64,000 nucleotides of DNA from Escherichia phage QL01, in the sequence record NC_028847.1. The stretch is one strand, 5' to 3'. The position numbers were made by a program, and so were the translations under genes. How positions within the stretch are numbered: the first letter of the stretch is position 1; every line of letters begins with the position of its first letter. The notes beneath the pieces were generated by a model. That model saw nothing but the letters and a program-made list of their open reading frames with translations, had not been told where the DNA came from and ran no database searches. Shown here in pieces: positions 7,696 through 31,725 of the stretch.

Positions 7696-9255
7696 ATGAA
7701 AAAGAATGCATTAGTTCAAAAATGGTCCGCTCTGCTGGAAAACGAAGCCCTTCCTGAAATCGTGGGTGCTTCTAAACAAGCTATCATCGCTAAAATTTTC
7801 GAAAACCAGGAACAAGACATCCTGACTGCTCCGGAATACCGTGATGAAAAAATCTCTGAAGCATTTGGTTCTTTCCTGACCGAAGCTGAAATTGGTGGTG
7901 ACCACGGTTATGATGCTACCAATATCGCAGCTGGCCAGACTTCTGGTGCTGTAACTCAGATTGGGCCGGCAGTAATGGGTATGGTTCGTCGTGCTATTCC
8001 TCATCTGATTGCTTTTGATATTTGTGGTGTTCAGCCTCTGAATAACCCTACCGGCCAGGTATTTGCCCTTCGTGCAGTTTATGGTAAAGACCCTATCGCT
8101 TCTGGCGCTAAAGAAGCTTTCCATCCGATGTATTCTCCAGACGCTATGTTCTCTGGTCAGGGTGCTGCTGAAACTTTCGAAGCACTGGCTGCAAGCAAAG
8201 TTCTGGAAGTTGGTAAAATTTATTCTCACTTCTTCGAAGCTACCGGTGCTGCACACTTCCAGGCTGTCGAAGCCGTAACCGTTGATGCTGCTGCTACTGA
8301 TGCCGCTAAACTGGATGCTGCTGTTACCGCTTTGATTGAAGCTGGTAAGTTGGCTGAATTGGCTGAAGGTATGGCTACTTCTATCGCTGAACTTCAGGAA
8401 GGCTTTAACGGTTCTACCGATAACCCGTGGAACGAAATGGGCTTCCGCATCGACAAACAAGTTATCGAAGCTAAATCCCGTCAGCTGAAAGCAAGCTACT
8501 CTATCGAACTGGCACAGGACCTTCGTGCAGTACACGGTATGGATGCAGATGCTGAACTGTCCGGTATCCTTGCTACCGAAATTATGCTCGAAATCAACCG
8601 TGAAGTTATCGATTGGATTAACTACTCTGCACAGGTTGGTAAATCTGGTATGACCAACACCGTTGGCGCTAAAGCTGGTGTGTTTGACTTCCAGGACCCG
8701 ATTGATATCCGTGGTGCTCGTTGGGCCGGTGAGAGCTTTAAAGCCCTTCTGTTCCAGATTGATAAAGAAGCAGCCGAAATCGCTCGTCAGACCGGTCGTG
8801 GTGCTGGTAACTTCATCATCGCTTCCCGTAACGTAGTTAACGTACTGGCTGCAGTTGATACTTCTGTAAGTTATGCAGCTCAAGGTCTGGGTCAAGGTTT
8901 CAACGTTGACACAACCAAAGCAGTATTTGCCGGTGTTCTTGGTGGTAAATATCGCGTTTACATCGACCAGTATGCACGTTCCGATTACTTCACCATCGGT
9001 TATAAAGGCGCTAACGAAATGGACGCAGGTATCTACTATGCTCCGTACGTTGCACTGACCCCGCTGCGTGGTTCCGATCCGAAGAACTTCCAACCGGTAA
9101 TGGGCTTCAAAACTCGTTACGGTATCGGTATCAACCCGTTCGCTGACCCTGCTGCTCAGGCTCCTACCAAACGTATCCAGAATGGTATGCCTGACATCGT
9201 TAACAGCCTTGGTCTGAATGGTTACTTCCGTCGCGTATATGTTAAAGGTATCTAA
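7696..9255 (+). CDS. 23: major capsid protein gp23
   Basis: 519 aa; long stretches identical to T4 gp23 (SKQAIIAKIFENQE, AEIGGDHGY, TSGAVTQIGPAVMGMVRRAIP, YYAPYVALTPLRGSDPKNFQPVMGFKTRYGIGINPFA). Confidence 0.98.
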   Translation: MKKNALVQKWSALLENEALPEIVGASKQAIIAKIFENQEQDILTAPEYRDEKISEAFGSFLTEAEIGGDHGYDATNIAAGQTSGAVTQIGPAVMGMVRRAIPHLIAFDICGVQPLNNPTGQVFALRAVYGKDPIASGAKEAFHPMYSPDAMFSGQGAAETFEALAASKVLEVGKIYSHFFEATGAAHFQAVEAVTVDAAATDAAKLDAAVTALIEAGKLAELAEGMATSIAELQEGFNGSTDNPWNEMGFRIDKQVIEAKSRQLKASYSIELAQDLRAVHGMDADAELSGILATEIMLEINREVIDWINYSAQVGKSGMTNTVGAKAGVFDFQDPIDIRGARWAGESFKALLFQIDKEAAEIARQTGRGAGNFIIASRNVVNVLAAVDTSVSYAAQGLGQGFNVDTTKAVFAGVLGGKYRVYIDQYARSDYFTIGYKGANEMDAGIYYAPYVALTPLRGSDPKNFQPVMGFKTRYGIGINPFADPAAQAPTKRIQNGMPDIVNSLGLNGYFRRVYVKGI

Positions 9256-9290: not shown

Positions 9291-9304
9291 TTCTTGTTTC
9301 TGTA

Positions 9305-9571
9305 TTATGCAATCTTAACTCGGCGGTTGATGATATCACGGAAGTCAATACGATTTTCTTGGATTTTCAGCCAGTTACCAGATTTGTCTTTGGTATGGGT
9401 AGAGTATTCACCGTTCCACCAGAAGTCGGTAGCATAAGCCATGGCTTCGTATTTCTTAACTAAGGCATTCACTGCATTACCATTAGGATTGTTACCGAAT
9501 TTTTCTACCAGAGCTTTGATGTCTTTATCAAGAGCGGAAAGAGTAGTACGAATAAAGTTTAACTTGTTCAT
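9305..9571 (-). CDS. hypothetical protein (early-promoter small ORF antisense to capsid genes)
   Basis: ORF with GAGGAG SD before internal ATG (MNKLNFIRTT...); preceded on minus strand by GTTTAC-N18-TACTAT promoter; no recognisable family. Confidence 0.55.
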   Translation of the reverse strand: MNKLNFIRTTLSALDKDIKALVEKFGNNPNGNAVNALVKKYEAMAYATDFWWNGEYSTHTKDKSGNWLKIQENRIDFRDIINRRVKIA

Positions 9572-9600
9572 TTTTAATCTCCTCATGTTTTGATAGGTCT

Positions 9601-9630
9601 ATAGTAACATGTGAGAATCTTGCTGTAAAC
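9601..9630 (-). promoter_or_regulatory. early promoter GTTTAC-N18-TACTAT (drives 9305..9571 ORF)
   Basis: Motif on minus strand; same extended TACTATAGACCTATCAA pattern as other early promoters in window. Confidence 0.55.
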
Positions 9631-9636
9631 AACTTT

Positions 9637-9644
9637 TATAAATA
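9637..9644 (+). promoter_or_regulatory. late promoter TATAAATA (gene 24)
   Basis: Consensus about 30 bp upstream of gene 24 ATG. Confidence 0.6.
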
Positions 9645-9672
9645 AACATATACCCTCAATAAGGAAAGCGCA

Positions 9673-10956
9673 ATGGCAAAGATTAACGAATTACTGCGCG
9701 AGTCAACAACTACTTCCAGCAACTCATTGGGTCGCCCTAATCTTGTTGCTTTGACCCGTGCTACAACCAAATTGATTTACCGTGATATTATCGCCGAACA
9801 ACGTACTAGCCAGCCTATTGCTGCACTGTATGGTGTCAAATATCTTACCCCTGATAATGAATTTAGTTTCCAGACAGGTGCCTCTTATGGTGGTGAAGTT
9901 GGTTCTAAAGACCGTGAAACTATCCCAGAACTCACAGATAAGGCCCAGGCGATTGCTCAGGGTGAATATTTCAAGTACCAGAATGTGGTTTATAAGGCTC
10001 TTAAAGCAAGCCCACTCGCGTCCACTAGCGCCACAGAATTGGCTGAGGCTCTTCAAGAAGGTTTAGTGTCATTAACATGTCGTCTGGTTCCTGATGCTGC
10101 CCATACCACTAAATTTGAAGCGAGTGATGTAGAAATCTCTGATGCTGTATTCCAGGTTAATAAATGGAATGCTCCGGTTAAGACCCGTAAATTGAAGACG
10201 GCTTTGACTGTAGAATTAGCGCAGGATATGGAATCAAATGGCTTTGACGCGCCGGCGTTCTTAGAAGACCTCTTGGCTACAGTAATGGCAGATGAAATTA
10301 ATAAAGACGTTCTGCAATCTCTAATAACCGTATCCAAACGTTATAAAGTTACTGGTGTATCTGATAACGGCATCATCGATTTGTCTTATGACAGTGCTCC
10401 TGAATCTGCACGTAAACTTTATGAACTCGTTTGTGAGATGAATTCTGAAATCCAGAAAACTACTTCTTATTCTGGCACGTTTGTTGTGGCTTCAAGTCGT
10501 GTGGCTGCAATGCTTGCAGGTTCTGGCTGGTTAAAACATAAACCCGAAGATAATAATTGGCTTCCGGAAACTGCATACGGATATTTGTTGAATGGGCTGC
10601 CTCTGTTTTGTGACGTTAACAGTCCATTAGATTATGTTACCGTTGGTGTTAAAGAGAATTACGGCGGTAATGAAGTTGTCGGTTCTATTTTCTACGCTCC
10701 CTATACCGAAGGCTTAGATTTAGATGACCAAGAACACGTCGGTGCTTATAAGGTTATTGTTGACCCGGATTCATTACAACCTTCTATTTCTCTGATGGTT
10801 CGTTATGCACTATCAGCTAACCCGTACACCGTGGCTAAAGACGATAAAGAAGCTCGTGTTATCGATGCAACCAATATGGATTTAATGGCTGGGCAGAGCA
10901 ATATGTCTTATCTGGTTGGCGTTAAACTTCCGGCAATTATTTACGAGGCTGATTAA
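9673..10956 (+). CDS. 24: capsid vertex protein gp24
   Basis: 427 aa; N-terminus MAKINELLRESTTT...GRPNLVALTRATTKLIY matches T4 gp24. Confidence 0.96.
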   Translation: MAKINELLRESTTTSSNSLGRPNLVALTRATTKLIYRDIIAEQRTSQPIAALYGVKYLTPDNEFSFQTGASYGGEVGSKDRETIPELTDKAQAIAQGEYFKYQNVVYKALKASPLASTSATELAEALQEGLVSLTCRLVPDAAHTTKFEASDVEISDAVFQVNKWNAPVKTRKLKTALTVELAQDMESNGFDAPAFLEDLLATVMADEINKDVLQSLITVSKRYKVTGVSDNGIIDLSYDSAPESARKLYELVCEMNSEIQKTTSYSGTFVVASSRVAAMLAGSGWLKHKPEDNNWLPETAYGYLLNGLPLFCDVNSPLDYVTVGVKENYGGNEVVGSIFYAPYTEGLDLDDQEHVGAYKVIVDPDSLQPSISLMVRYALSANPYTVAKDDKEARVIDATNMDLMAGQSNMSYLVGVKLPAIIYEAD

Positions 10957-12236
10957 TGTCTAAGATTGTAGACCTAATTAAAGAATCCACATTGACGGCT
11001 GCCAGCTCGGTTGGCCGTCCTGCTCTTCTTTCATACACCCAAGCAACTAATAAACGAATCTTTAAAGCCCTAGTTGCTGAACAAAAAACAAATCAACCGG
11101 TTGCTGCTCTGTATGGGGTACGTGTACTGAATCCTGACGACAAAATGACTTATCTTGGTGGAGCAACATTTGCGGGCCAGATTGGTATGACGGAACGTGA
11201 AAATATTCCAGAATTTACTGATTCATCTACAGCTTATGCGGTCGGTGATATGTTCCAGTTTGAAAGCGTAGTGTTTAAAGTTCTAGAAGCATCTCCTTTC
11301 GCCGGAACCACAGAAACCAACCTCAGCGAAGTTATTTCTGAAGCAGTGGCAGCCGGCCATATCCGTATGGTGTCGGATGCTGCTATTACTTCTAAATTTG
11401 AACAGGGCCATCCTGAAATTGCTGAAACCGGATTCCGTATCGACAAATGGCAATCTGAAGTTAAATCACGTAAACTGAAAACTTCATTGACAGTCGAATT
11501 AGCCCAAGACCTAGAATCTAACGGGTTTAATGCTCCTAATTTCGTTGAAAATCTGCTAGGCATTCAAATGGCAGAAGAAATTAATAAGGATGTATTACAG
11601 TCATTAATTACCGTGAGCTCTCGTTTTAAAGTCCAGGGTGTTTCTGAAAAGGGTGTATTAGACCTTACCAACCCTCGCTACGATAATGCCCAGGACCGTG
11701 CTCGCACATTATATTATTATATGTGTGAGATGAACTCTGCCGTCCAACGACAGACTTCTTTTGCCGGGACTTATGCAGTAGCTAGTTCTCGTTGTGCTGC
11801 TATTCTCGCCGCCTCTGGTTGGGTTGAGAAAAAGGAAGACCAGGACGAATTGGCTTATGGTATATTAAAGAATGGCCTACCACTTTATGCTGATATGAAT
11901 AGTCCATGTGATTATGTTATTGTTGGTGTAAATGCCCAGATGGGTGAAGGACAGACGGTCGCATCTTTATATTATGCGCCTTATACGGAAGGTTTGAATG
12001 TGGTTGACGAAGAAGGTGATACTTCAGTTGGTGAATTTAAGGTTATTGTTGACCCGGAAAGCTTACAACCTACAGTAGCATTGCTTGCTCGTTATGCATT
12101 GACTGCAAACCCTTATACCGTCGCTAAGGACGATAAAGAAGCCCGCATTATTGATGGTTCTGATATGGACAAAATGGCTAATCAAAGTCAATTGAGTTCT
12201 TATCTCGGCGTAAAATTACCGCCTTTAGAAAAATAA
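10956..12236 (+). CDS. capsid vertex protein gp24 paralog (divergent tandem copy)
   Basis: 426 aa, collinear similarity to the upstream gp24 (KSRKLKT.LTVELAQD.ESNGF.AP.F.E.LL, VLQSLITVS.R.KV.GVS, YYAPYTEGL, YAL.ANPYTVAKDDKEAR.ID) but clearly diverged; ATG overlaps gp24 stop. Confidence 0.9.
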   Translation: MSKIVDLIKESTLTAASSVGRPALLSYTQATNKRIFKALVAEQKTNQPVAALYGVRVLNPDDKMTYLGGATFAGQIGMTERENIPEFTDSSTAYAVGDMFQFESVVFKVLEASPFAGTTETNLSEVISEAVAAGHIRMVSDAAITSKFEQGHPEIAETGFRIDKWQSEVKSRKLKTSLTVELAQDLESNGFNAPNFVENLLGIQMAEEINKDVLQSLITVSSRFKVQGVSEKGVLDLTNPRYDNAQDRARTLYYYMCEMNSAVQRQTSFAGTYAVASSRCAAILAASGWVEKKEDQDELAYGILKNGLPLYADMNSPCDYVIVGVNAQMGEGQTVASLYYAPYTEGLNVVDEEGDTSVGEFKVIVDPESLQPTVALLARYALTANPYTVAKDDKEARIIDGSDMDKMANQSQLSSYLGVKLPPLEK

Positions 12237-12257
12237 AAGGGACCGTAAGGTCCCTTT
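12236..12257. terminator. GNRA-tetraloop hairpin (AAAGGGACC-GUAA-GGUCCCUUU) between convergent gp24 paralog and rnlB
   Basis: Perfect 9-bp stem, T-rich downstream on plus strand. Confidence 0.65.
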
Positions 12258-12262
12258 ATCGT

Positions 12263-13270
12263 TTATTTGGATACTAGTTCAATCCATACATGTCTTAATG
12301 TTTCTTTTACGCACTCAACGAGCTGCTTTTTAACTTCAACGGGATTTTCCGCATCAGTTAATTCCAATTCTTCACGGGCGGCTTCTTCAAGGATATCCTG
12401 GACTGTCAAGCCCATCACCTTTCCGAAATCCTTCGGCGATACTTCGCCAATCTTACTGATGACATTGTTAATGCGGTTAACAGTCACATAATCGGTGAAT
12501 TGCCACATCAAATCCATATCGTCTTGGGACAATACCACTGCAACTTTAATAGGCTTATCAGACTTTTTCTTCTCGCTGAATTTAGAGTTCTTACATTTAA
12601 TCGCCACACGATTTCCGTTTGGAAGCCAGAGCGGATAACAAGGTTTTAATACGTACCCTTCAGCGGTAAATACTTCACCTTTTACTTCAGCATTCCACAC
12701 ATAGGCATTAGCTTCAATTAGCCCGACGTTATCTACCATAAAATTATAATCAGGAAGGACGGAATCTAAATCATTTGGCAATTTAATAAGGTCTTCAAAT
12801 TTACCACGTCCTAAAAGTGGAGCCAGTTTAAATCCAAAGGTCTTACAAAATGATTCCATCATATAATCATCGACATAGGTCACATCACCACTTTCGGTGG
12901 TAACAATAATGTCAAATACATAAAAATCTTTAGCACCGTAATCAACATTCTTCTGAATGCCTGTTCCAGCGAATTCACCGAAAACTTGATAAGATACAGC
13001 TGCCGAAGTTTCCATAATATCTTGTACGGCTTTAATAGAATCGGCATAGTTCTTAAGTACAATTTCATAGCCATAGAAATCTTCAGCAGGGAGGATAGGG
13101 CCAGTGCGCTTGGCGCATGTGACTGCGTCACGTTCTATGATTAAACTAAAGTTGGTTCCATGAATCTTCTCACGTGCTACCCATTCACCACCAGTCAAAC
13201 CATTAGTACGGAGTTTTTCGATAAACTTACTGTTGTAGTGGTTTTCGAGACTGCTATATTTCTTGAACAT
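12263..13270 (-). CDS. rnlB: RNA ligase 2 (RnlB)
   Basis: 335 aa; KIHGTN nucleotidyltransferase motif I; position after gene 24 as in T4 (gene 24.1). Confidence 0.9.
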
Positions 13271-13697: not shown

Positions 13698-14546
13698 TTA
13701 ATAAATGTAATCGTATATAATACCAGCTTCTAAAGCGGTGCGATGAATAATTCGACCATTACGAGATTCTTGTACATCAACCTCTGAATAGTCGGTAATC
13801 ATTTTTTGAAGTGTATATCGGTGCAAATAATACGGGCTATCCGGGTCATCTGTTTTCCAGTCTTTGCCTTCAAGAGTCATTTTCTGGATTTCATCCATAA
13901 CCCACCAACCAACCCAAATATATGCTGAATTACGAACAGGGAGTGGATGAACGTAAGGTAATTCGCCATCCAGAACCGGTGCGACTTTAGCCGTGACTGT
14001 TACATTACCGGTTTTTGTGACAGTCGCCGGGTTATAATCAGTCGCCGAAACCACAACAGAAACTTCAATAACCTGTGAACCTTCAGTGCTTGTATCGATT
14101 GCTAGAGTATCCGTGGTGCCAACTACAGGAGAACCGTCTTTCTTCCAAGAATAGGCAAAAGTAGCACCAGCAGGAGCGCCGACCACATCCGCTTTAAAAG
14201 AAGCTGGAGTGCCTTCCGGAACATTAATCGAAGCTGGGGTTAATGTCACAGAAACACCAGTCATAGTTTTATTCTGGATAGTTAAAGTCGTCTCAGCTTC
14301 AGCAGTTTCCGGTTCGCCGTCCGCTGGTGTAGTTGTTGCAACAACTTTAATAGTCTTGCTGCCTGCTGGACCAACAGCAACATAATCCATTGCAGCAGTC
14401 ACAGAAGATTGAGGAACGCCATCAACAGTCCAGACAAATGATTCAGTACCTTCAGCTGCAGCACCGGAACCGGTCGCAGTGAAATTGGTTGTTGCTCCAA
14501 TAACGGCCGTAGCCGCCGAAGGAGAAATATCTACGGTATAAGCCAT
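13698..14546 (-). CDS. hoc: Hoc outer capsid decoration protein (short form, two Ig-like domains plus capsid-binding domain)
   Basis: 282 aa; Ala/Thr/Val-rich Ig-like repeats then conserved C-terminal block (HPLPVRNSAYIWVGWWVMDEI...) ; position before inh. Confidence 0.85.
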   Translation of the reverse strand: MAYTVDISPSAATAVIGATTNFTATGSGAAAEGTESFVWTVDGVPQSSVTAAMDYVAVGPAGSKTIKVVATTTPADGEPETAEAETTLTIQNKTMTGVSVTLTPASINVPEGTPASFKADVVGAPAGATFAYSWKKDGSPVVGTTDTLAIDTSTEGSQVIEVSVVVSATDYNPATVTKTGNVTVTAKVAPVLDGELPYVHPLPVRNSAYIWVGWWVMDEIQKMTLEGKDWKTDDPDSPYYLHRYTLQKMITDYSEVDVQESRNGRIIHRTALEAGIIYDYIY

Positions 14547-25435: not shown

Positions 25436-25465
25436 ATAGTACCACATCCTTGTGGTGTTGTAAAC
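25436..25465 (-). promoter_or_regulatory. early promoter GTTTAC-N18-TACTAT overlapping alt paralog 1 stop
   Basis: Motif on minus strand upstream of 25117..25407 ORF. Confidence 0.5.
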
Positions 25466-27588
25466 TACATTTTGAATTTATTTGATAAAGAAGAGATATC
25501 CAAAGACGCGGCAAGGATTTCCATAGCTTCGTTGCTTTCAGAAACGGATTCATTAACCAAGAATTGACTAAATCCATCCATCAGGCGAACTTCACCAGTT
25601 TCCATCAAATGGTCACCATCGTAAACAGATTCGCTGAGCTCTGAAGGAGGCGTTACGGTAGCTTCCATAAGGTATTTGTGAGATACTCTATCATTCATGG
25701 CAAAAGCCGCTACTTTATCAACCTTCAACAATAATCCACGCGGAAGGATAATTTCTGCTTCTTCGGCATATTCTGTAAGGTCACCAGGAGCGATAACTTT
25801 AACTGCTTCAGCACCTCGAATAACCATACCAATTTCAGCAATTCTATCTGCAGGACCTTCAGGTGCAATTGGATTACCAAACTCGTCTTCTTCCCATTCT
25901 ACCTCTTCGTCATCGACTTCACCCACATCAGATGAACTACCACTAGCCAATTTAAACAACTCATCAGCGGAGGACAAAGAACCTTCACCACCAACAAAAA
26001 CGGCTTGGTTGTCGAGGGCCATATAATTTTTACCGAATTCACCAAAGATGTTAGGCTTTAATGAGGCTGACACAAAGTTCTTAAAGTAAAATGTTTTGTT
26101 ATCGATATTATGGCGCAGAATTTTGTATGGCAAATCCTGACCACGATACAAAATAGTACCCTTAGGAAGTTTAATACCCTTAGTAAATGCTGAGTCTAAA
26201 TCCTTAATCAATTTAATAGCCGTTGTATTGTTTTCGGATTCAGGTTTACCTAAAAGGAATAAGTTCATAGGAGCATATTCAGCCGCGCAATATTCAATAA
26301 TAGCATTGCTTTCGTCTTTGGTTAGGTCCTTAGGTTTAATGAGCTCGCCTGAATAAGCATATGCATCACTAATAGAATCGTTAACCAGTTTATAAACGGC
26401 TTCCATAGCGAAAGCAATTCTAGATGCTTTCTCTGAAGGGGAACCCTTAAAACGGGTACTCAGGTTATTAACAATTTTCTTAATAATATCCAGACTATTG
26501 GTTGTATTGATTTGCGAAAGGCCACTTAAAAGTCTATCGACTTCTGTATTAAAAAATGCCATATTATTAGAGTAAATTTCAAACCCTTGTTTATCTCTAT
26601 TAGCATAATTTAGTTTAAATTTACTATCAGTCATTAAAGCGTGTGTGAGAGCAATAGTGTATCTAAAGTTGGCAAGGTCCTCGCTCTTAGATTTAAACTG
26701 AGAAGCCTGACGCATTTTAGTAATGGCACCTTTTTTAAAGTTCTGACTAATCTGTTCAATACCTTCGTTCTCAGGGCCTTCAGCCGTGTGAACCGGTACA
26801 GAAGCTTCAAACTCGTTATAAACCTGCAATTCTTTAGGGGACAAAGTTTCAGGCTCAGCAGTAGAATACTGCGCGGCCGCAGCCATACGACGCGAAATCT
26901 TAGTACGAGAGATAACGGCCTTATCAGTACGTTTCTCTTCAACTTGTGCAATAGATGCCGCTACGGCTTCTACTTTACTTACGGCCTGGCCTGTTTTCTT
27001 AGAAACATACACTTCGCCAACTTTAGACTCAACTTTAGTATAAAGATCGGCATTAATTTCAGGCATACCCTTGATATCTTCAATATTAGCACCGCGACGT
27101 ACTAAAAGAACGTAGGTATGTTTTCCGCTGAATTGGAACATGTCGTCAACAACTTTAAACTTACCACCGGTACGAGCCATAGCCAAACGAGCTAATACGC
27201 GCTGAACGGTAGGACCTTTACCTTTCATTTTCTTAGTAGGGAAACGGAATAAAACCGCGTCCATTTTAAGTTTGATTATTTGTTCATATATGGTATCGAA
27301 AATGGTGTTCAGTGTACCGAGTGGATCGGTACCCAAACCACCCTTGAGTTCTGCCGGAGCGCCTTTAGCAGATAAACTCATTAAGATAACATGGACGTAC
27401 TTATCGCCATTTTTAACCATCTTAATAGCGTCGCCTTCGGACGCATAAGATACCATACGTGCTACTAAATTGTCATTACCAGGAGCATGTACCGCAAAAA
27501 TCTGCGGTACGCCTGAGCCAGGTTTAAGATTTGTTACCGGATAGTTTTTAGCGGAATCGCTATCAAAAACTTCGTTTAAATTTTCCAT
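25465..27588 (-). CDS. Alt-like ADP-ribosyltransferase paralog 1 (most divergent copy)
   Basis: 707 aa; first ~200 aa nearly identical to paralog 2 and collinear with T4 Alt; C-terminal ART region with YRGQ, FVSASL (variant of STS) and EAEIILPRG; acidic insertion. Confidence 0.85.
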   Translation of the reverse strand: MENLNEVFDSDSAKNYPVTNLKPGSGVPQIFAVHAPGNDNLVARMVSYASEGDAIKMVKNGDKYVHVILMSLSAKGAPAELKGGLGTDPLGTLNTIFDTIYEQIIKLKMDAVLFRFPTKKMKGKGPTVQRVLARLAMARTGGKFKVVDDMFQFSGKHTYVLLVRRGANIEDIKGMPEINADLYTKVESKVGEVYVSKKTGQAVSKVEAVAASIAQVEEKRTDKAVISRTKISRRMAAAAQYSTAEPETLSPKELQVYNEFEASVPVHTAEGPENEGIEQISQNFKKGAITKMRQASQFKSKSEDLANFRYTIALTHALMTDSKFKLNYANRDKQGFEIYSNNMAFFNTEVDRLLSGLSQINTTNSLDIIKKIVNNLSTRFKGSPSEKASRIAFAMEAVYKLVNDSISDAYAYSGELIKPKDLTKDESNAIIEYCAAEYAPMNLFLLGKPESENNTTAIKLIKDLDSAFTKGIKLPKGTILYRGQDLPYKILRHNIDNKTFYFKNFVSASLKPNIFGEFGKNYMALDNQAVFVGGEGSLSSADELFKLASGSSSDVGEVDDEEVEWEEDEFGNPIAPEGPADRIAEIGMVIRGAEAVKVIAPGDLTEYAEEAEIILPRGLLLKVDKVAAFAMNDRVSHKYLMEATVTPPSELSESVYDGDHLMETGEVRLMDGFSQFLVNESVSESNEAMEILAASLDISSLSNKFKM

Positions 27589-27591
27589 TAT

Positions 27592-29637
27592 TTACCCTTG
27601 GATGAATTTTTCTGGCGTTTCGTCAAAATTAATACATGAAGCTAAAATAGGCATTATATCCACCTTGGTCGATTTGACGAATGAATCAAAAGACACAGGG
27701 TTGTCGGTCTCTGTTTCTACGCCTTGGTAAACAACCAATTCGCCGGTTTCCATCAATGCATCACCATCATAGATAACCGCATTTTCTGCTAGTTGGTCTG
27801 TGGTCTGGATATCAGCTTCCAATAATTTGGTGTTGTAGTTTCCTTTATATGAGGCATCTGTAATTTTAGTAATCTTAACAGTAGTTCCACGTGGAAGAAT
27901 AACCTCTTGTTCTGTTGGAGAACCTGACAATTTACCTGGCACAATTACGTTAATAGAGTCTGCACCGGAAATTTTCCAACCGATGTTCATCATTGTATTT
28001 TCGGAACTCGTCAGCATACTTGGAAGAACAATTTCATTATCGCCTTGGAAAGATGTCCCAGCGCGATAGTCCTGATGAACTGCGGCCATTGCGACGTTTG
28101 ATACCCAGCCGCCAAAGATAATCGGCTTAAGGGACGTTGATACATAGTTCCTGAAATAAAACAATTTTGAGTGTTTGATTTTATCAAAAGTGTTAACATT
28201 TAAATATTGACCACGCCAAAGTGTAATATCAGGTGGCAATTTATGGCCAATTTCAAATGCTGCATCCATATCATTAATTACTTCAATTACACGATAACTA
28301 TCAATAAATTCTGCATCCTCTTCATAATAATTACCCAACAAATAATTATTAACATCGGTATAATATTGGCCACAATAAGAAGAAATAGCCTCACGCTGCT
28401 CATACTCAAATCGATTATCGCTATAACTGGCTGTAAAATGCATAACACTTTCTGACGCTTCATTAGCAAAGTCGGTAACAGCAGCACTTATACGTTGAGC
28501 ATACTCTTGTTCCCAAAGCTCTGCTGCATATTCTGCCGCATCCATATTAGGAGGAGCCTCATTCATTTTTCTTTCAATAAATGCAGCTTTGCGAAGGTTA
28601 AGAACCTCTGCACATGATTCGGCAAAAATCTGCATCTGCTTCATACTGCCGACAGGAGCACGTTTAAGTTCACGATGCATACGGTTAAAAATTGGGTCAG
28701 AGTCTTCGACTCGAATTTCTTCTTTCCAAACACCGTTTGCTCGCATAGCCATATCTGCCGCGCGCATACGCTCCATAGTATTCGTTTCAGAAGGTTGAAT
28801 AAAAATTTCTAGTTCTTCATAATCATCGATAAGTTCCGCTGTTGCTGGGGCACTAAATTTTGATGCCTCTGCATCAATCTCATTCCAACCTTCCGGAACT
28901 TCATCTCGAGGAGAATACTGGGCTGCGGCTACAGCACGCCTAGAAATCTTAGTAGTAGTAATAACGGCCTTATCCGTACGTTTTTCTTCGACTGCCGCTA
29001 TACTAGCAGATAGTGCTTCTATTTTGGTTACCGATTGGCCTGTTTTCTTGGATACATAAACCTCACCAACTTTAGACTCAACCTTAGTGTAAAGGTCTGC
29101 ATCAATTTCAGGCATACCTTTTATGTCCTCAATATTAGCTTGTTTACGGACCAGTAAAACGTATGTATGTTTGCCTGTAAATTGATACATATCATCGACA
29201 ACTTTAAACTTGCCGCCAGTACGAGCCATCGCCAAACGTGCCAATACACGTTGAACAGTAGGACCCTTACCTTTCATTTTCTTGGTAGGGAACCGGAAAA
29301 GAACTGCATCCATTTTAAGTTTGTTTACTTGTTCGTATACAGTATCAAAAATGGTATTCAGCGTACCAAGTGGGTCAGAACCTAACCCACCTTTCAACTC
29401 GGCTGGGCTACCCTTAGCAGACAAACTCATCAAAATAACATGAACATATTTGTCGCCCGGCTTAACCATTTTAATAGCGTCTCCTTGAGACGCATAAGAT
29501 ACCATACGAGCAACCAGATTATCATTACCTGGTGCTTGGATAGAGAAAATCTGTGGAATACCGGAACCCGGTTTAAGATTTGTTACTGGATAGTTTTTAG
29601 CGGAATCACTATCAAAAACCTCATTTAAATTTTCCAT
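27592..29637 (-). CDS. Alt-like ADP-ribosyltransferase paralog 2
   Basis: 681 aa; conserved N-terminal region, WRGQ, YVSTSL, EQEVILPRG motifs, C-terminus ...PEKFIQG as in T4 Alt. Confidence 0.88.
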   Translation of the reverse strand: MENLNEVFDSDSAKNYPVTNLKPGSGIPQIFSIQAPGNDNLVARMVSYASQGDAIKMVKPGDKYVHVILMSLSAKGSPAELKGGLGSDPLGTLNTIFDTVYEQVNKLKMDAVLFRFPTKKMKGKGPTVQRVLARLAMARTGGKFKVVDDMYQFTGKHTYVLLVRKQANIEDIKGMPEIDADLYTKVESKVGEVYVSKKTGQSVTKIEALSASIAAVEEKRTDKAVITTTKISRRAVAAAQYSPRDEVPEGWNEIDAEASKFSAPATAELIDDYEELEIFIQPSETNTMERMRAADMAMRANGVWKEEIRVEDSDPIFNRMHRELKRAPVGSMKQMQIFAESCAEVLNLRKAAFIERKMNEAPPNMDAAEYAAELWEQEYAQRISAAVTDFANEASESVMHFTASYSDNRFEYEQREAISSYCGQYYTDVNNYLLGNYYEEDAEFIDSYRVIEVINDMDAAFEIGHKLPPDITLWRGQYLNVNTFDKIKHSKLFYFRNYVSTSLKPIIFGGWVSNVAMAAVHQDYRAGTSFQGDNEIVLPSMLTSSENTMMNIGWKISGADSINVIVPGKLSGSPTEQEVILPRGTTVKITKITDASYKGNYNTKLLEADIQTTDQLAENAVIYDGDALMETGELVVYQGVETETDNPVSFDSFVKSTKVDIMPILASCINFDETPEKFIQG

Positions 29638-29640
29638 TAT

Positions 29641-31725
29641 TTACCCTTGGATGAATTTTTCTGGGATGTCATAGAGGTCTATGCATGAAGCCAAAAGAGG
29701 CAGTACATCAAACCGTGTAGATTTAACAAATGAATCAAAAGATAAGGGGCTTTCGGAAGTATCGAAGTCATCTTGATATACGACCAACTCGCCGGTTTCC
29801 ATTAGTACATCACCATCATATACCACAGATTCTTGAAGCTCATCTGTTGTCATAACTTCAGCTTGAATGAGTTTTGTATTACTAGATGTTGTTCCATCAT
29901 TATTAGAAGCATCTGTTATTTTATTAACTTTGACCATTAATCCACGCGGTAGAATAACTTCGGCTTCAGTTGCTATTCCGAGATTTCCTGGATATACGAC
30001 ATTAACTTTATGGGCCCCATCAATAGCCCATCCTATTTGAACTTTAACATAATCAGGATTTTCTTTATATGCTCTTATTTCATTAGGATTAATAGTTATT
30101 CCTTCTTCATTTTTATCGACTGTCAATTCATTGCGAACTTCAGGTTCTAAAAGACCGATACCAGCGTGCGTAACACCAAAACGTCCGAAAATTATAGGGG
30201 TCAATGAAGTGGATACAAAATTTCTAAAATAAAACACTTTATTTTTAACTAGTGCTTCGTATATAGGAGCAGTCATACTCTGGGCACGATAAACTGTGAT
30301 GCCCTCTGGTATACGGTCGCCATTTTCAAAAGCAGAATCCAAATTATTAACTGCAGATTCGATATCTTTTTCGCTCATAACCTCATAGTTCTGAGGATTA
30401 TAACGTCCTAAAAGAAGATTATTTATGTCTGTATATCCTGAACCACAATATTCTCTGATACCACGCTTTTGTGATGGAGTATATTTAGAACCCTCACGAG
30501 CAATAGTAATATCGACCATAATACCGCCACCTACACCAGCAAAACTATACACGCGTTTTTTAATGAACTTGGTCTTGGCCGCTTTCCACTTGGCCTCTGT
30601 CAATTCGTTCCAAAGGTCATCAGGTTGGCCTTTACGGGTTCTGTTATGAATAGCCAGCCACTCGCCTTTGTATTCTTCGAAAATGGTATTAATAGTAGAG
30701 GCATATTTTTCTAGGGCTTTAACAGATGTCAAAGGTTCGTTTTTGATGGCCGTAAGGATTTTCTCTTTAATTTTCTCTTGGATTTCGCCAATACCGTGAA
30801 GTGGGAACAATTTGTAATCGTAATGCAATTCTTCAGCAGTGCCTTCAGCCACTATATTAGCAACCTTATTTTTAGCCGCAGGAGAATTGTTATTAGTAAC
30901 CATTTCCTGAGCCTCAGGGATTAATGGAACTGTTGCCGGTTTATTAAAATCTACTGCAGTAGCTTCATATTTCTTAAACAGCTCACTTTCATTACGATAA
31001 GATTCTAACGATTGACTTGCTGCAATGGCACGTCGAGAAATCTTAGTCTTGGTTATAACCATTTTATCAGTGCGACGTTCTTCAACCTTAGCAATACTAC
31101 CGGCAATAGCAGTTTCTTTAGTAACCTGCATGCCTTCTTTTTTGGAAATATAAACTTCGCCGACATCAGAATCTACCTTAGTATACAATTCAGCATTAAT
31201 TCCAGGCATACCTTTGATATCTTCTATATCAGCTTGTTTACGAACTACCAGGATGTAAGTATGTTTACCGGTAAATTGGTACATAGCCGGAACTACTTTA
31301 AAACGTCCACCTGTTTTCTGTGCTACCAAACGTTGGATAATCCGTTGAACGATAGGGCCTTGACCTTTCATTTTCTTAGTAGGGAAACGGAACATCACGG
31401 CATCCATACGAAGCTTTTTAACTTGGTCATAAACCACATCAAAAATAGTATTAATCGCATCTACGGGAGTAGGGCCTAGGCCACCTTTAAGTTCGGCAGG
31501 CGAACCTTTAGCTGAAAGGCTCATAAGGATAACGTGGGCATATTTATCACCCATCTTAACCTGTTTAATAGCATCACCTTCAGAAGCGTAGGATACCATA
31601 CGCGCCACTAATTGGGATTCTGCGTCACCAATCTTCCAAATCTGGGGTACTTTAAGTTTTGGGTTCAAGTTTACTGTAGGCAGTGTGCCTTCGGACTCAA
31701 ACACTTCATTTAATTGTTCGGTCAT
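29641..31725 (-). CDS. alt: Alt ADP-ribosyltransferase (closest to T4 Alt)
   Basis: 694 aa; long blocks matching T4 Alt (KISRRAIA.SQSLES, PSQKRGIREY.GSGY.DINN.LLG, VFYFRNFVSTSL, EVILPRGLMVKVNKITDAS, ...KFIQG). Confidence 0.95.
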   Translation of the reverse strand: MTEQLNEVFESEGTLPTVNLNPKLKVPQIWKIGDAESQLVARMVSYASEGDAIKQVKMGDKYAHVILMSLSAKGSPAELKGGLGPTPVDAINTIFDVVYDQVKKLRMDAVMFRFPTKKMKGQGPIVQRIIQRLVAQKTGGRFKVVPAMYQFTGKHTYILVVRKQADIEDIKGMPGINAELYTKVDSDVGEVYISKKEGMQVTKETAIAGSIAKVEERRTDKMVITKTKISRRAIAASQSLESYRNESELFKKYEATAVDFNKPATVPLIPEAQEMVTNNNSPAAKNKVANIVAEGTAEELHYDYKLFPLHGIGEIQEKIKEKILTAIKNEPLTSVKALEKYASTINTIFEEYKGEWLAIHNRTRKGQPDDLWNELTEAKWKAAKTKFIKKRVYSFAGVGGGIMVDITIAREGSKYTPSQKRGIREYCGSGYTDINNLLLGRYNPQNYEVMSEKDIESAVNNLDSAFENGDRIPEGITVYRAQSMTAPIYEALVKNKVFYFRNFVSTSLTPIIFGRFGVTHAGIGLLEPEVRNELTVDKNEEGITINPNEIRAYKENPDYVKVQIGWAIDGAHKVNVVYPGNLGIATEAEVILPRGLMVKVNKITDASNNDGTTSSNTKLIQAEVMTTDELQESVVYDGDVLMETGELVVYQDDFDTSESPLSFDSFVKSTRFDVLPLLASCIDLYDIPEKFIQG

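Follow-up and report, generated by a model that had tools for sequence, protein, structure and literature searches.

Escherichia phage QL01 (sequence record NC_028847.1) carries two adjacent genes for proteins of the gp24 capsid vertex family, and we describe this gene pair here from an analysis of a 64,000-nucleotide stretch of its DNA (the window, to which all positions refer). Copy 1 (24a, capsid vertex protein I; the T4-gp24-type paralog) is an open reading frame (ORF) of 427 amino acids at 9673..10956 on the + strand, and copy 2 (24b, capsid vertex protein II; the second vertex paralog) is an ORF of 426 amino acids at 10956..12236 on the same strand. The TAA of copy 1 (10954-10956) and the ATG of copy 2 (10956-10958) overlap by one base, 10956, in the sequence TAATG. 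The gene for gp23 (7696..9255) lies a short way upstream of the pair, and the head cluster of the window runs in the order 20, 67/68-like, 21, 22, 23, small ORF, 24a, 24b, with rnlB convergent to it. The initial annotation had described two adjacent same-strand gp24-like ORFs of 427 and 426 amino acids, with the second ATG overlapping the first stop, and had noted that T4 has one gene 24. The exact coordinates, the match of both products to PF07068 and their 55% mutual identity bear out the first statement and the shared base the second; the single gene 24 of T4 is found at the syntenic site, between segD and rnlB.

Both proteins match PF07068 over their full length (E = 2.5e-98 for copy 1 and 2.5e-96 for copy 2), both are members of PHROG 138, and both fall inside the gp24 clade in a tree rooted with gp23; each is just 25-27% identical to the gp23 of its own phage. 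BLASTP aligns the two copies colinearly over their full length, with three small indels, 77% positives and E = 1e-177, and at 55% identity the description of copy 2 as 'strongly diverged' was overstated. Copy 1, which had been called the clear ortholog of T4 gp24, does belong to the same paralog lineage as T4 gp24 but is 70% identical to it, and so is not near-identical; copy 2 is 56% identical to T4 gp24. The sequence blocks quoted as common to the two copies are present, except that KSRKLKT and YYAPYTEGL are the spellings of copy 2, copy 1 having KTRKLKT and FYAPYTEGL. Copy 2 matches the solved T4 gp24 structures (1YUE, 7VRT and 7VS5) with E = 1e-150 over residues 1-423, and the 56% identity to a solved structure leads us to expect an HK97 fold for it; modelling copy 2 with AlphaFold2 on an alignment of 30 sequences gave a mean pLDDT of 48, too low for use. 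T4 gp24 (PDB 1YUE, 5VF3 and 7VS5), a single pentameric protein at 11 vertices, is of the same family (PF07068) as both copies and has the fold predicted for them, and the T4 gene resembles the pair in its position between gene 23 and rnlB, in the type of its late promoter and in its N-terminal maturation motif; the difference is that T4 has one gene and the phage of the window has two. The computed values for the mature products are 45.4 kDa and pI 4.66 (copy 1) against 45.3 kDa and pI 4.71 (copy 2), so near to each other that telling the paralogs apart needs mass spectrometry or high-resolution cryo-EM.

A T4-type late promoter, TATAAATA, at 9637..9644 on the + strand (29 nt 5' of the copy 1 ATG) is the sole one preceding the pair. 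Scanning the window for this promoter gave 16 matches against 6.6 expected, with none further between 9645 and 12236, and the promoter 5' of copy 1 is kept in 7/7 two-copy genomes compared. The Shine-Dalgarno sequences were read from the sequence: that of copy 1, AAGGA (9661..9665, + strand, 7 nt 5' of the ATG), is conserved in relatives as AAGGAAAG or GAGGAAAG, and that of copy 2, GAGG (10945..10948, + strand), lies within the 3' end of copy 1, also 7 nt 5' of its ATG. The junction site is GAGG or TGAGG in six of the seven two-copy genomes, Klebsiella phage R3_1 having a weaker GTGAG, and no RNA structure sequestering the ribosome-binding site of copy 2 was found at the junction (z = -0.09, zero consensus pairs). 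A GC-rich hairpin, GGGACC-GTAA-GGTCCC, followed by a T run (12236..12259), is a likely bidirectional terminator; rnlB (12263..13270, minus strand), convergent to copy 2, likely shares it with the vertex pair, and an equivalent hairpin stands 3' of copy 2 in 7/7 genomes compared. The vertex pair has the make-up of a single late transcription unit: one TATAAATA promoter ahead of it, one terminator behind it, a Shine-Dalgarno site for each gene and a first stop codon that abuts the second start.

Both genes are under equally strong purifying selection. Between the window and phage JS10 the ratio of nonsynonymous to synonymous substitution rates (dN/dS; Nei-Gojobori) is 0.047 in copy 1 against 0.050 in copy 2, and in other pairs with dS below 1.3 it is 0.04-0.08; over the pairs with unsaturated dS it is 0.047-0.075 and 0.050-0.065, respectively. 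Both genes appear to be functional. The motif L(L/I)xE↓ST (the arrow marks the predicted cut) is found at residues 7-12 in 20/20 sequences (10 of copy 1 and 10 of copy 2), as LLRE↓ST in copy 1 and as LI(K/Q/H/R/Y)E↓ST in copy 2, with LIKE↓ST in copy 2 of the window. The mature gp24 chains in the PDB (5VF3_a and 8GMO_A) begin at aligned residue 11, which agrees with the removal of 10 residues from gp24 by the T4 prohead protease gp21 (PMC9958956). Both proteins are probably trimmed after Glu10 by the prohead protease.

These features bear on whether copy 2 belongs to the shell at all. It would stand outside the shell if it served for decoration, as a cement or scaffold, or in a non-structural role, or if its gene were decaying, and its lack of the DLDDPEH loop and its different N-arm and C-tail (described below) fit such a role. 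However, the dN/dS of about 0.05 and a reading frame that is intact in all genomes compared speak against it, as do the full-length gp24 match, P-domain and spine helix included, and the retention of a propeptide cleavage motif that has a meaning only within the prohead. We regard a role outside the shell as highly improbable, and the decoration or cement function that the initial annotation had offered is an unlikely one for copy 2, a full-length shell protein of predicted HK97 type in which the cleavage motif and the P-domain/spine-helix core are kept. It is very probable, judging from the sequences, that both proteins are genuine vertex subunits of the shell.

Distribution and age of the gene pair

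A megablast search with positions 9300-12300 of the window found 99.7-99.8% identity to the Escherichia phages vB_EcoM-E33, LQ5, FB, WG01, PSD2002 and Bp7, 93% to JS10 and 86% to JS98; all of the matches are Dhakavirus. The window and Bp7 have copy 2 proteins that are 100% identical, and each copy of the window nests inside the Dhakavirus sequences of its own type. The pair has been deposited as '24a' and '24b gp24 head vertex protein' in JS98 (EF469154), JS10 (EU863409) and IME08, as 'capsid vertex protein I/II' in VR5 and VR26, with the second gene as '24(2)' in VR7, and as 'head vertex protein I/II' in Salmonella phage CGG4-1. The 24a/24b pairs of the Dhakavirus phages JS98, JS10, IME08, Bp7 and WG01 and of the Gaprivervirus phages VR7 and VR26 are the same locus as that in the window; the Dhakavirus pair agrees with it in order, junction, promoter and terminator, with no difference of substance. 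The gene pair as a feature is already known, and the window is another isolate of the Dhakavirus group. As a finding the pair is ordinary, having stood in public annotations since the JS98 genome and in more than 100 sequenced phages. For the initial annotation, a duplication that proved to be a common, already characterised feature of this phage group would have told against its proposal; it is common and annotated there, but our literature search found no functional characterisation of the second gene 24, no paper analysing it and no virion proteomics of a two-copy phage. The sole proteomics table located concerns a single-copy Jiaodavirus (PMC13119998).

A tblastn search with copy 2 (E ≤ 1e-60) gave 1493 places in 1376 phage records, and a cut-off of E ≤ 1e-190, which excludes the single-copy gp24s, was used to count the copy-2-type genes. 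Such a gene is present in 112 of the 1376 gp24-bearing records (∼8%), in at least five genera: Dhakavirus, Gaprivervirus, Gelderlandvirus, Kanagawavirus and Marfavirus. The order in every two-copy case examined is gene 23, sometimes a small ORF, the copy-1-type gene, the copy-2-type gene and rnlB on the opposite strand, and the tandem cassette with abutting or overlapping stop and start codons, from gene 23 to rnlB, was found in the window and in 13 other genomes or contigs. A single gene 24 is present in T4, Mosigvirus, Moonvirus, Karamvirus, Jiaodavirus, Tegunavirus and Winklervirus and in the Acinetobacter, Providencia, Aeromonas and Krischvirus outgroups. Among 5.8 billion proteins searched, more divergent copy-2-type proteins turned up at 66-70% identity, one of them from Erwinia phage FBB1; the FBB1-like and metagenomic contigs encode, in this order, gp23, a copy-1-type protein of 428-429 amino acids and a copy-2-type protein, again with abutting or overlapping stop and start codons. 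The cassettes of Gelderlandvirus (Melville, STML-198 and CGG4-1), Kanagawavirus (Q7622 and Kosakonia 305), Marfavirus (F48, Marfa and R3_1) and the Erwinia FBB1-like phages are orthologous to that of the window, each paralog being one clade that co-diverges with the other, and their copy 2 proteins are 66-84% identical to that of the window. No copy 2 without copy 1 was found among the 112 records and four further FBB1-like or metagenomic lineages.

Copy 2 is 55-56% identical to copy 1, 56-57% identical to T4 gp24 and 55-63% identical to the other single-copy gp24s, the upper values (62-63%) being those to Jiaodavirus gp24. In a neighbour-joining (NJ) tree copy 1 groups with the gp24s of T4, Mosigvirus, Moonvirus and Karamvirus (bootstrap 77; the T4 group below), and copy 2 stands on its own long stem (bootstrap 98); the bootstrap of the copy 2 clade is 98 with seven genomes and 68 with 14. 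The ratio of informative sites uniting copy 1 with the T4 group to those uniting copy 1 with copy 2 is 5:1, 8:2 or 15:5 depending on stringency, and at polarised sites copy 2 mostly keeps the outgroup state while copy 1 and the T4 group share the derived state. The copy 2 clade was also placed by likelihood on each relevant backbone branch, using a BLOSUM62-derived reversible model with four gamma categories. The best placement is as sister to copy 1 plus the T4 group, with a log-likelihood (lnL) of -9063.4 and a support of 0.53 from resampling of estimated log-likelihoods (RELL). Placements next to Jiaodavirus/Tegunavirus, or one node deeper, are 3-4 lnL units below the best, and that as sister to copy 1 is 33 lnL units worse (z = -2.75, RELL 0.002), a gap that is unchanged at alpha 0.5. 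Adding the FBB1-like lineages leaves copy 2 as a single clade, and their copy 1 sequences branch outside the main copy 1 plus T4 group (NJ bootstrap 64-68, likelihood RELL 0.85), with monophyly of all copy 1 sequences at -8.9 lnL (RELL 0.14) and so not rejected.

The identity between copy 1 and copy 2 within a genome is constant, at 54-58% in 14 genomes, and the pairwise distances of the two paralogs correlate with r = 0.95; the paralogs have co-diverged as a linked pair over at least six phage lineages. Synonymous sites between the copies are saturated, and gene conversion between them is not detectable (60% nucleotide identity; 44% identical codons at identical residues).

That the pair arose recently, by tandem duplication in situ within Dhakavirus with the second copy then diverging rapidly, was implicit in the initial annotation and has some appearances in its favour: both genes lie in tandem on one strand and are of nearly equal length, and copy 2 has a long stem, with 14-36 unique substitutions against 3-16 for copy 1. 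The site patterns and the likelihood placement reject it, copy 2 holding the outgroup state at sites where a derived state unites copy 1 with the T4 group and the sister-to-copy-1 placement failing by the margin given above. The occurrence of the pair at constant identity in the divergent lineages just described, the saturated synonymous sites and the absence of gene conversion also count against such an event, which we consider extremely improbable.

The second possibility is that a divergent T4-like phage donated copy 2 through recombination, which placed it beside a resident gene 24, the cassette then spreading by homologous recombination in its conserved flanks. The trees of the flanking genes are relevant here. 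The two-copy genera are not monophyletic in the gp23 and RnlB trees: RnlB places Dhakavirus and Gaprivervirus with T4 and Mosigvirus (bootstrap 99) and Gelderlandvirus with Jiaodavirus and Winklervirus (bootstrap 83), and gp23 places Gelderlandvirus with Moonvirus (bootstrap 96.5) and Dhakavirus with Kanagawavirus (bootstrap 87.5). The head-gene region is thus recombinationally mosaic across the genera of the Tevenvirinae. This mosaicism around the locus speaks for an acquired copy 2, and the small lnL deficit of the placements near Jiaodavirus/Tegunavirus gp24 points the same way, as does the higher identity of copy 2 to Jiaodavirus gp24 than to copy 1. However, the sampled phages and metagenomic contigs hold no donor with a copy-2-type gene only, the GC and GC3 of copy 1 and copy 2 match, and the best placement is exactly that expected of a duplication before copy 1 and the T4 group separated. 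We consider acquisition from another phage, such as one of an unsampled basal lineage, unlikely. The flanking-gene trees conflict with each other and with the vertex-gene trees.

Read most simply, the trees point to a single duplication long ago, ahead of the ancestor that the two-copy lineages have in common with the T4 group. On this reading the split between copy 1 and copy 2 predates that between copy 1 and T4 gp24, which would make it most likely that the lineage of T4, Mosigvirus, Moonvirus and Karamvirus has lost copy 2.

Differences between the two proteins

Regions are given in T4 numbering, with the structural description taken from PMC9546572. Identity between the copies is highest in residues 166-225 and 360-400 (70-80%), with ∼80% in residues 166-192, ∼70% in the spine helix and ∼75% in residues 360-400. 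It is lowest (37-41%) in I-linker 1, the I-domain, the AP-loop-like segment (residues 283-302) and the loop 348-359. Divergence in the I-domain and A-domain is not peculiar to copy 2, since both domains vary among all gp24s. The paralogs have 18 universally fixed differences, eight of which lie in residues 25-57.

Three regions set copy 2 apart from T4 gp24 and from all of the other single-copy gp24s, the N-arm motif, the loop 348-359 and the C-tail. The N-arm (residues 25-36) reads LVALTRATTKLIY in copy 1 and in every single-copy gp24, that of the distant Winklervirus included, where it is invariant; all copy 2 proteins have the equally invariant LLS(Y/F)TxATNKRIF instead. In the loop 348-359 the sequence DLDDPEH is 86% conserved in the single-copy proteins, and copy 2 has a variable acidic loop, three residues longer, in its place. 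The C-tail SSYLGVKLPPLEK is 89% conserved within copy 2 and is unlike the tail of copy 1 and T4 gp24. In T4, residues 26-29 of gp24 pair through a β interaction with the I-domain linker of the neighbouring subunit in their pentamer, and residues 11-20 and the AP loop contact the neighbouring gp23 hexamers (PMC9546572). Beyond the visible database annotations our analysis adds something modest: by our home-made phylogenetics the pair appears ancient, with a probable loss in T4, and copy 2 has an invariant N-arm and C-tail of its own.

The AP-loop-like segment has one long and one short form in every two-copy genome. In the main lineages it is long in copy 1 (20 residues) and short in copy 2 (16 residues). 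The FBB1-like lineages (loci L021, L023, L024 and L025) differ from the window in having the two swapped, with 17 residues in copy 1 and 20-21 in copy 2. The alternation may reflect complementary contacts with gp23.

Possible roles at the capsid vertices

On balance, and with a little more belief than doubt, we read the locus as an ancient, conserved cassette of two genes for paralogous capsid vertex proteins, with copy 2 as a specialised second vertex subunit. The most plausible idea of its role is one at a subset of the vertices. Both proteins would be made late, would enter the prohead shell at five-fold positions and would be cut there after Glu10. Copy 2, retaining the P-domain and spine-helix surfaces required to sit in the gp23 lattice, would form pentamers of its own (or some defined arrangement with a partner) and take part of the 11 non-portal vertices in the prolate head, and copy 1 would occupy the remaining ones. 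The proposal that copy 2 pairs with itself is drawn from its changes in the N-arm, I-linker 1, the C-tail and the loop 348-359, taken together with the clasping of neighbours by the N-arm and I-linker 1 in T4. That paralog-specific pentamers fill different subsets of the non-portal vertices is possible, although we would incline slightly against it if pressed.

There is a precedent for such specialisation in gp23 and gp24 themselves, in which a shell protein was duplicated and specialised, leaving adjacent paralogs in the late head cluster (PMC9958956, PMC3012670). The parallel is imperfect: gp23 and gp24 are ∼20-27% identical and have proven hexamer and pentamer positions, whereas the gp24 paralogs are 55% identical and have proposed positions only.

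Several points weigh against a division of the vertices between two kinds of pentamer. We infer the presence of both products in the virion, their cleavage and their location from their sequences, and no proteomic, genetic or structural data on either product were found in the sources searched. The 55 gp24 subunits at the 11 vertices of T4 are conformationally alike (PMC9546572), so that geometry supplies no demonstrated reason for having two vertex proteins. The tight linkage in translation points to comparable synthesis of the two, which fits mixed pentamers at least as well as a split of the vertices in the ratio 1:10 or 5:5:1. No column of gp23 was found that tracks the presence of one or two vertex genes, and the AP loop was mapped to gp24 residues 283-302 through a gp23-gp24 alignment, which makes its position approximate. 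The age assigned to the pair comes from home-made likelihood code with an approximate BLOSUM62-derived rate matrix and a fixed NJ backbone.

Mixed pentamers, in which copy 1 and copy 2 co-assemble at each of the 11 vertices with copy 2 as an obligate partner, would account for several observations: copy 2 never occurs without copy 1 in the 112 records and four further lineages, co-transcription and the abutting stop and start codons favour similar dosage, the two co-diverge tightly (r = 0.95), the core residues 166-225 and 360-400 are conserved between them, and the AP-loop-like segment comes in a long and a short form in each genome. However, two types of subunit cannot alternate regularly in a five-membered ring, and T4-type gp24 builds pentamers alone. 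The N-arm clasp and I-linker 1, which pair neighbours in T4 (PMC9546572), are moreover both altered in copy 2, and pairing of copy 2 with copy 2 explains this more simply. We find co-assembly at every vertex rather unlikely.

The two proteins might also be alternative or redundant, either of them filling all of the vertices and the second lending robustness, such as thermal or pH stability or escape from host defences or antibodies. In T4, gp24 is a main determinant of head stability to heat and low pH (PMC10580926), and mutations in gp23 can bypass gp24 (PMC3012670, PMC9958956), which makes vertex occupancy plastic. The parts in which the two proteins diverge most are the surface I-domain and the linkers. 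Redundancy, however, predicts neither the equally strong purifying selection on both copies in at least six lineages nor the fact that copy 2 is never the sole copy, and the single common promoter gives no sign of differential regulation. We think it improbable that the copies are interchangeable.

The reading in which copy 2 is a specialised second vertex subunit can be taken further. Gp23 and two vertex proteins may have made up the ancestral three-protein shell of much of the Tevenvirinae, with different pentamers at non-equivalent vertices (for example the apical vertex and the ten shoulder vertices) and T4 secondarily simplified; we put this forward as a speculation that is more likely wrong than right. 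If different pentamers do occupy non-equivalent vertices, vertex non-equivalence in prolate capsids would be genetically encoded, and phages with the pair would be a natural system for studying the recognition of five-fold positions that are not equivalent in an elongated icosahedron. Work on prolate-head assembly takes T4 as its reference and the single vertex protein of T4 as representative of the group, yet ∼8% of the gp24-bearing records keep a second, constrained paralog. Head stability is also of practical relevance, as JS98, JS10, Bp7, WG01, S16-like phages and the Klebsiella Marfavirus phages are candidates for therapy or biocontrol.

Neighbouring genes and the rest of the window

Between gene 23 and copy 1 the window has an ORF of 93 amino acids (9305-9586, minus strand) that matches phrog_6003 (E = 8e-50) and is without a Pfam match. 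The same slot holds the homing endonuclease gene segD in T4 and small ORFs homologous to the 93-residue one in JS98, JS10, VR5, VR26 and HX01.

On the other side of the pair, the FBB1-like and metagenomic lineages differ from the window in having extra genes between copy 2 and rnlB, two on the + strand, of ∼332-352 and 165-279 amino acids (L021 4890-6427, L022 5345-6900, L024 2676-4506 and L025 5326-6841); one of the genes has a faint collagen-repeat match. Contig L023 of this set is without the insertion. Jiaodavirus, Gelderlandvirus and Winklervirus have a small DprA-like or uncharacterised gene between the last vertex gene and rnlB (L008 4312-4860, L020 4802-5278, L007 4303-4866 and L010 2782-3333), which is absent from the window and from T4.

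Scans of the window for tRNAs and against Rfam gave no matches. At 25465-31725 on the minus strand there are three tandem paralogs of an Alt-like RNA polymerase ADP-ribosyltransferase, of 707, 681 and 694 amino acids (phrog_802, E of 1e-248 to 1e-262). They are 40-51% identical overall, with nearly invariant N-terminal parts of ∼240 residues and divergent C-terminal catalytic parts; T4 has one alt gene. A Hoc-like head decoration gene (13698-14546, minus strand) encodes 282 amino acids, against 376 (1131 nt) for T4 hoc, and this shorter protein suggests fewer Ig-like domains in the phage group of the window.

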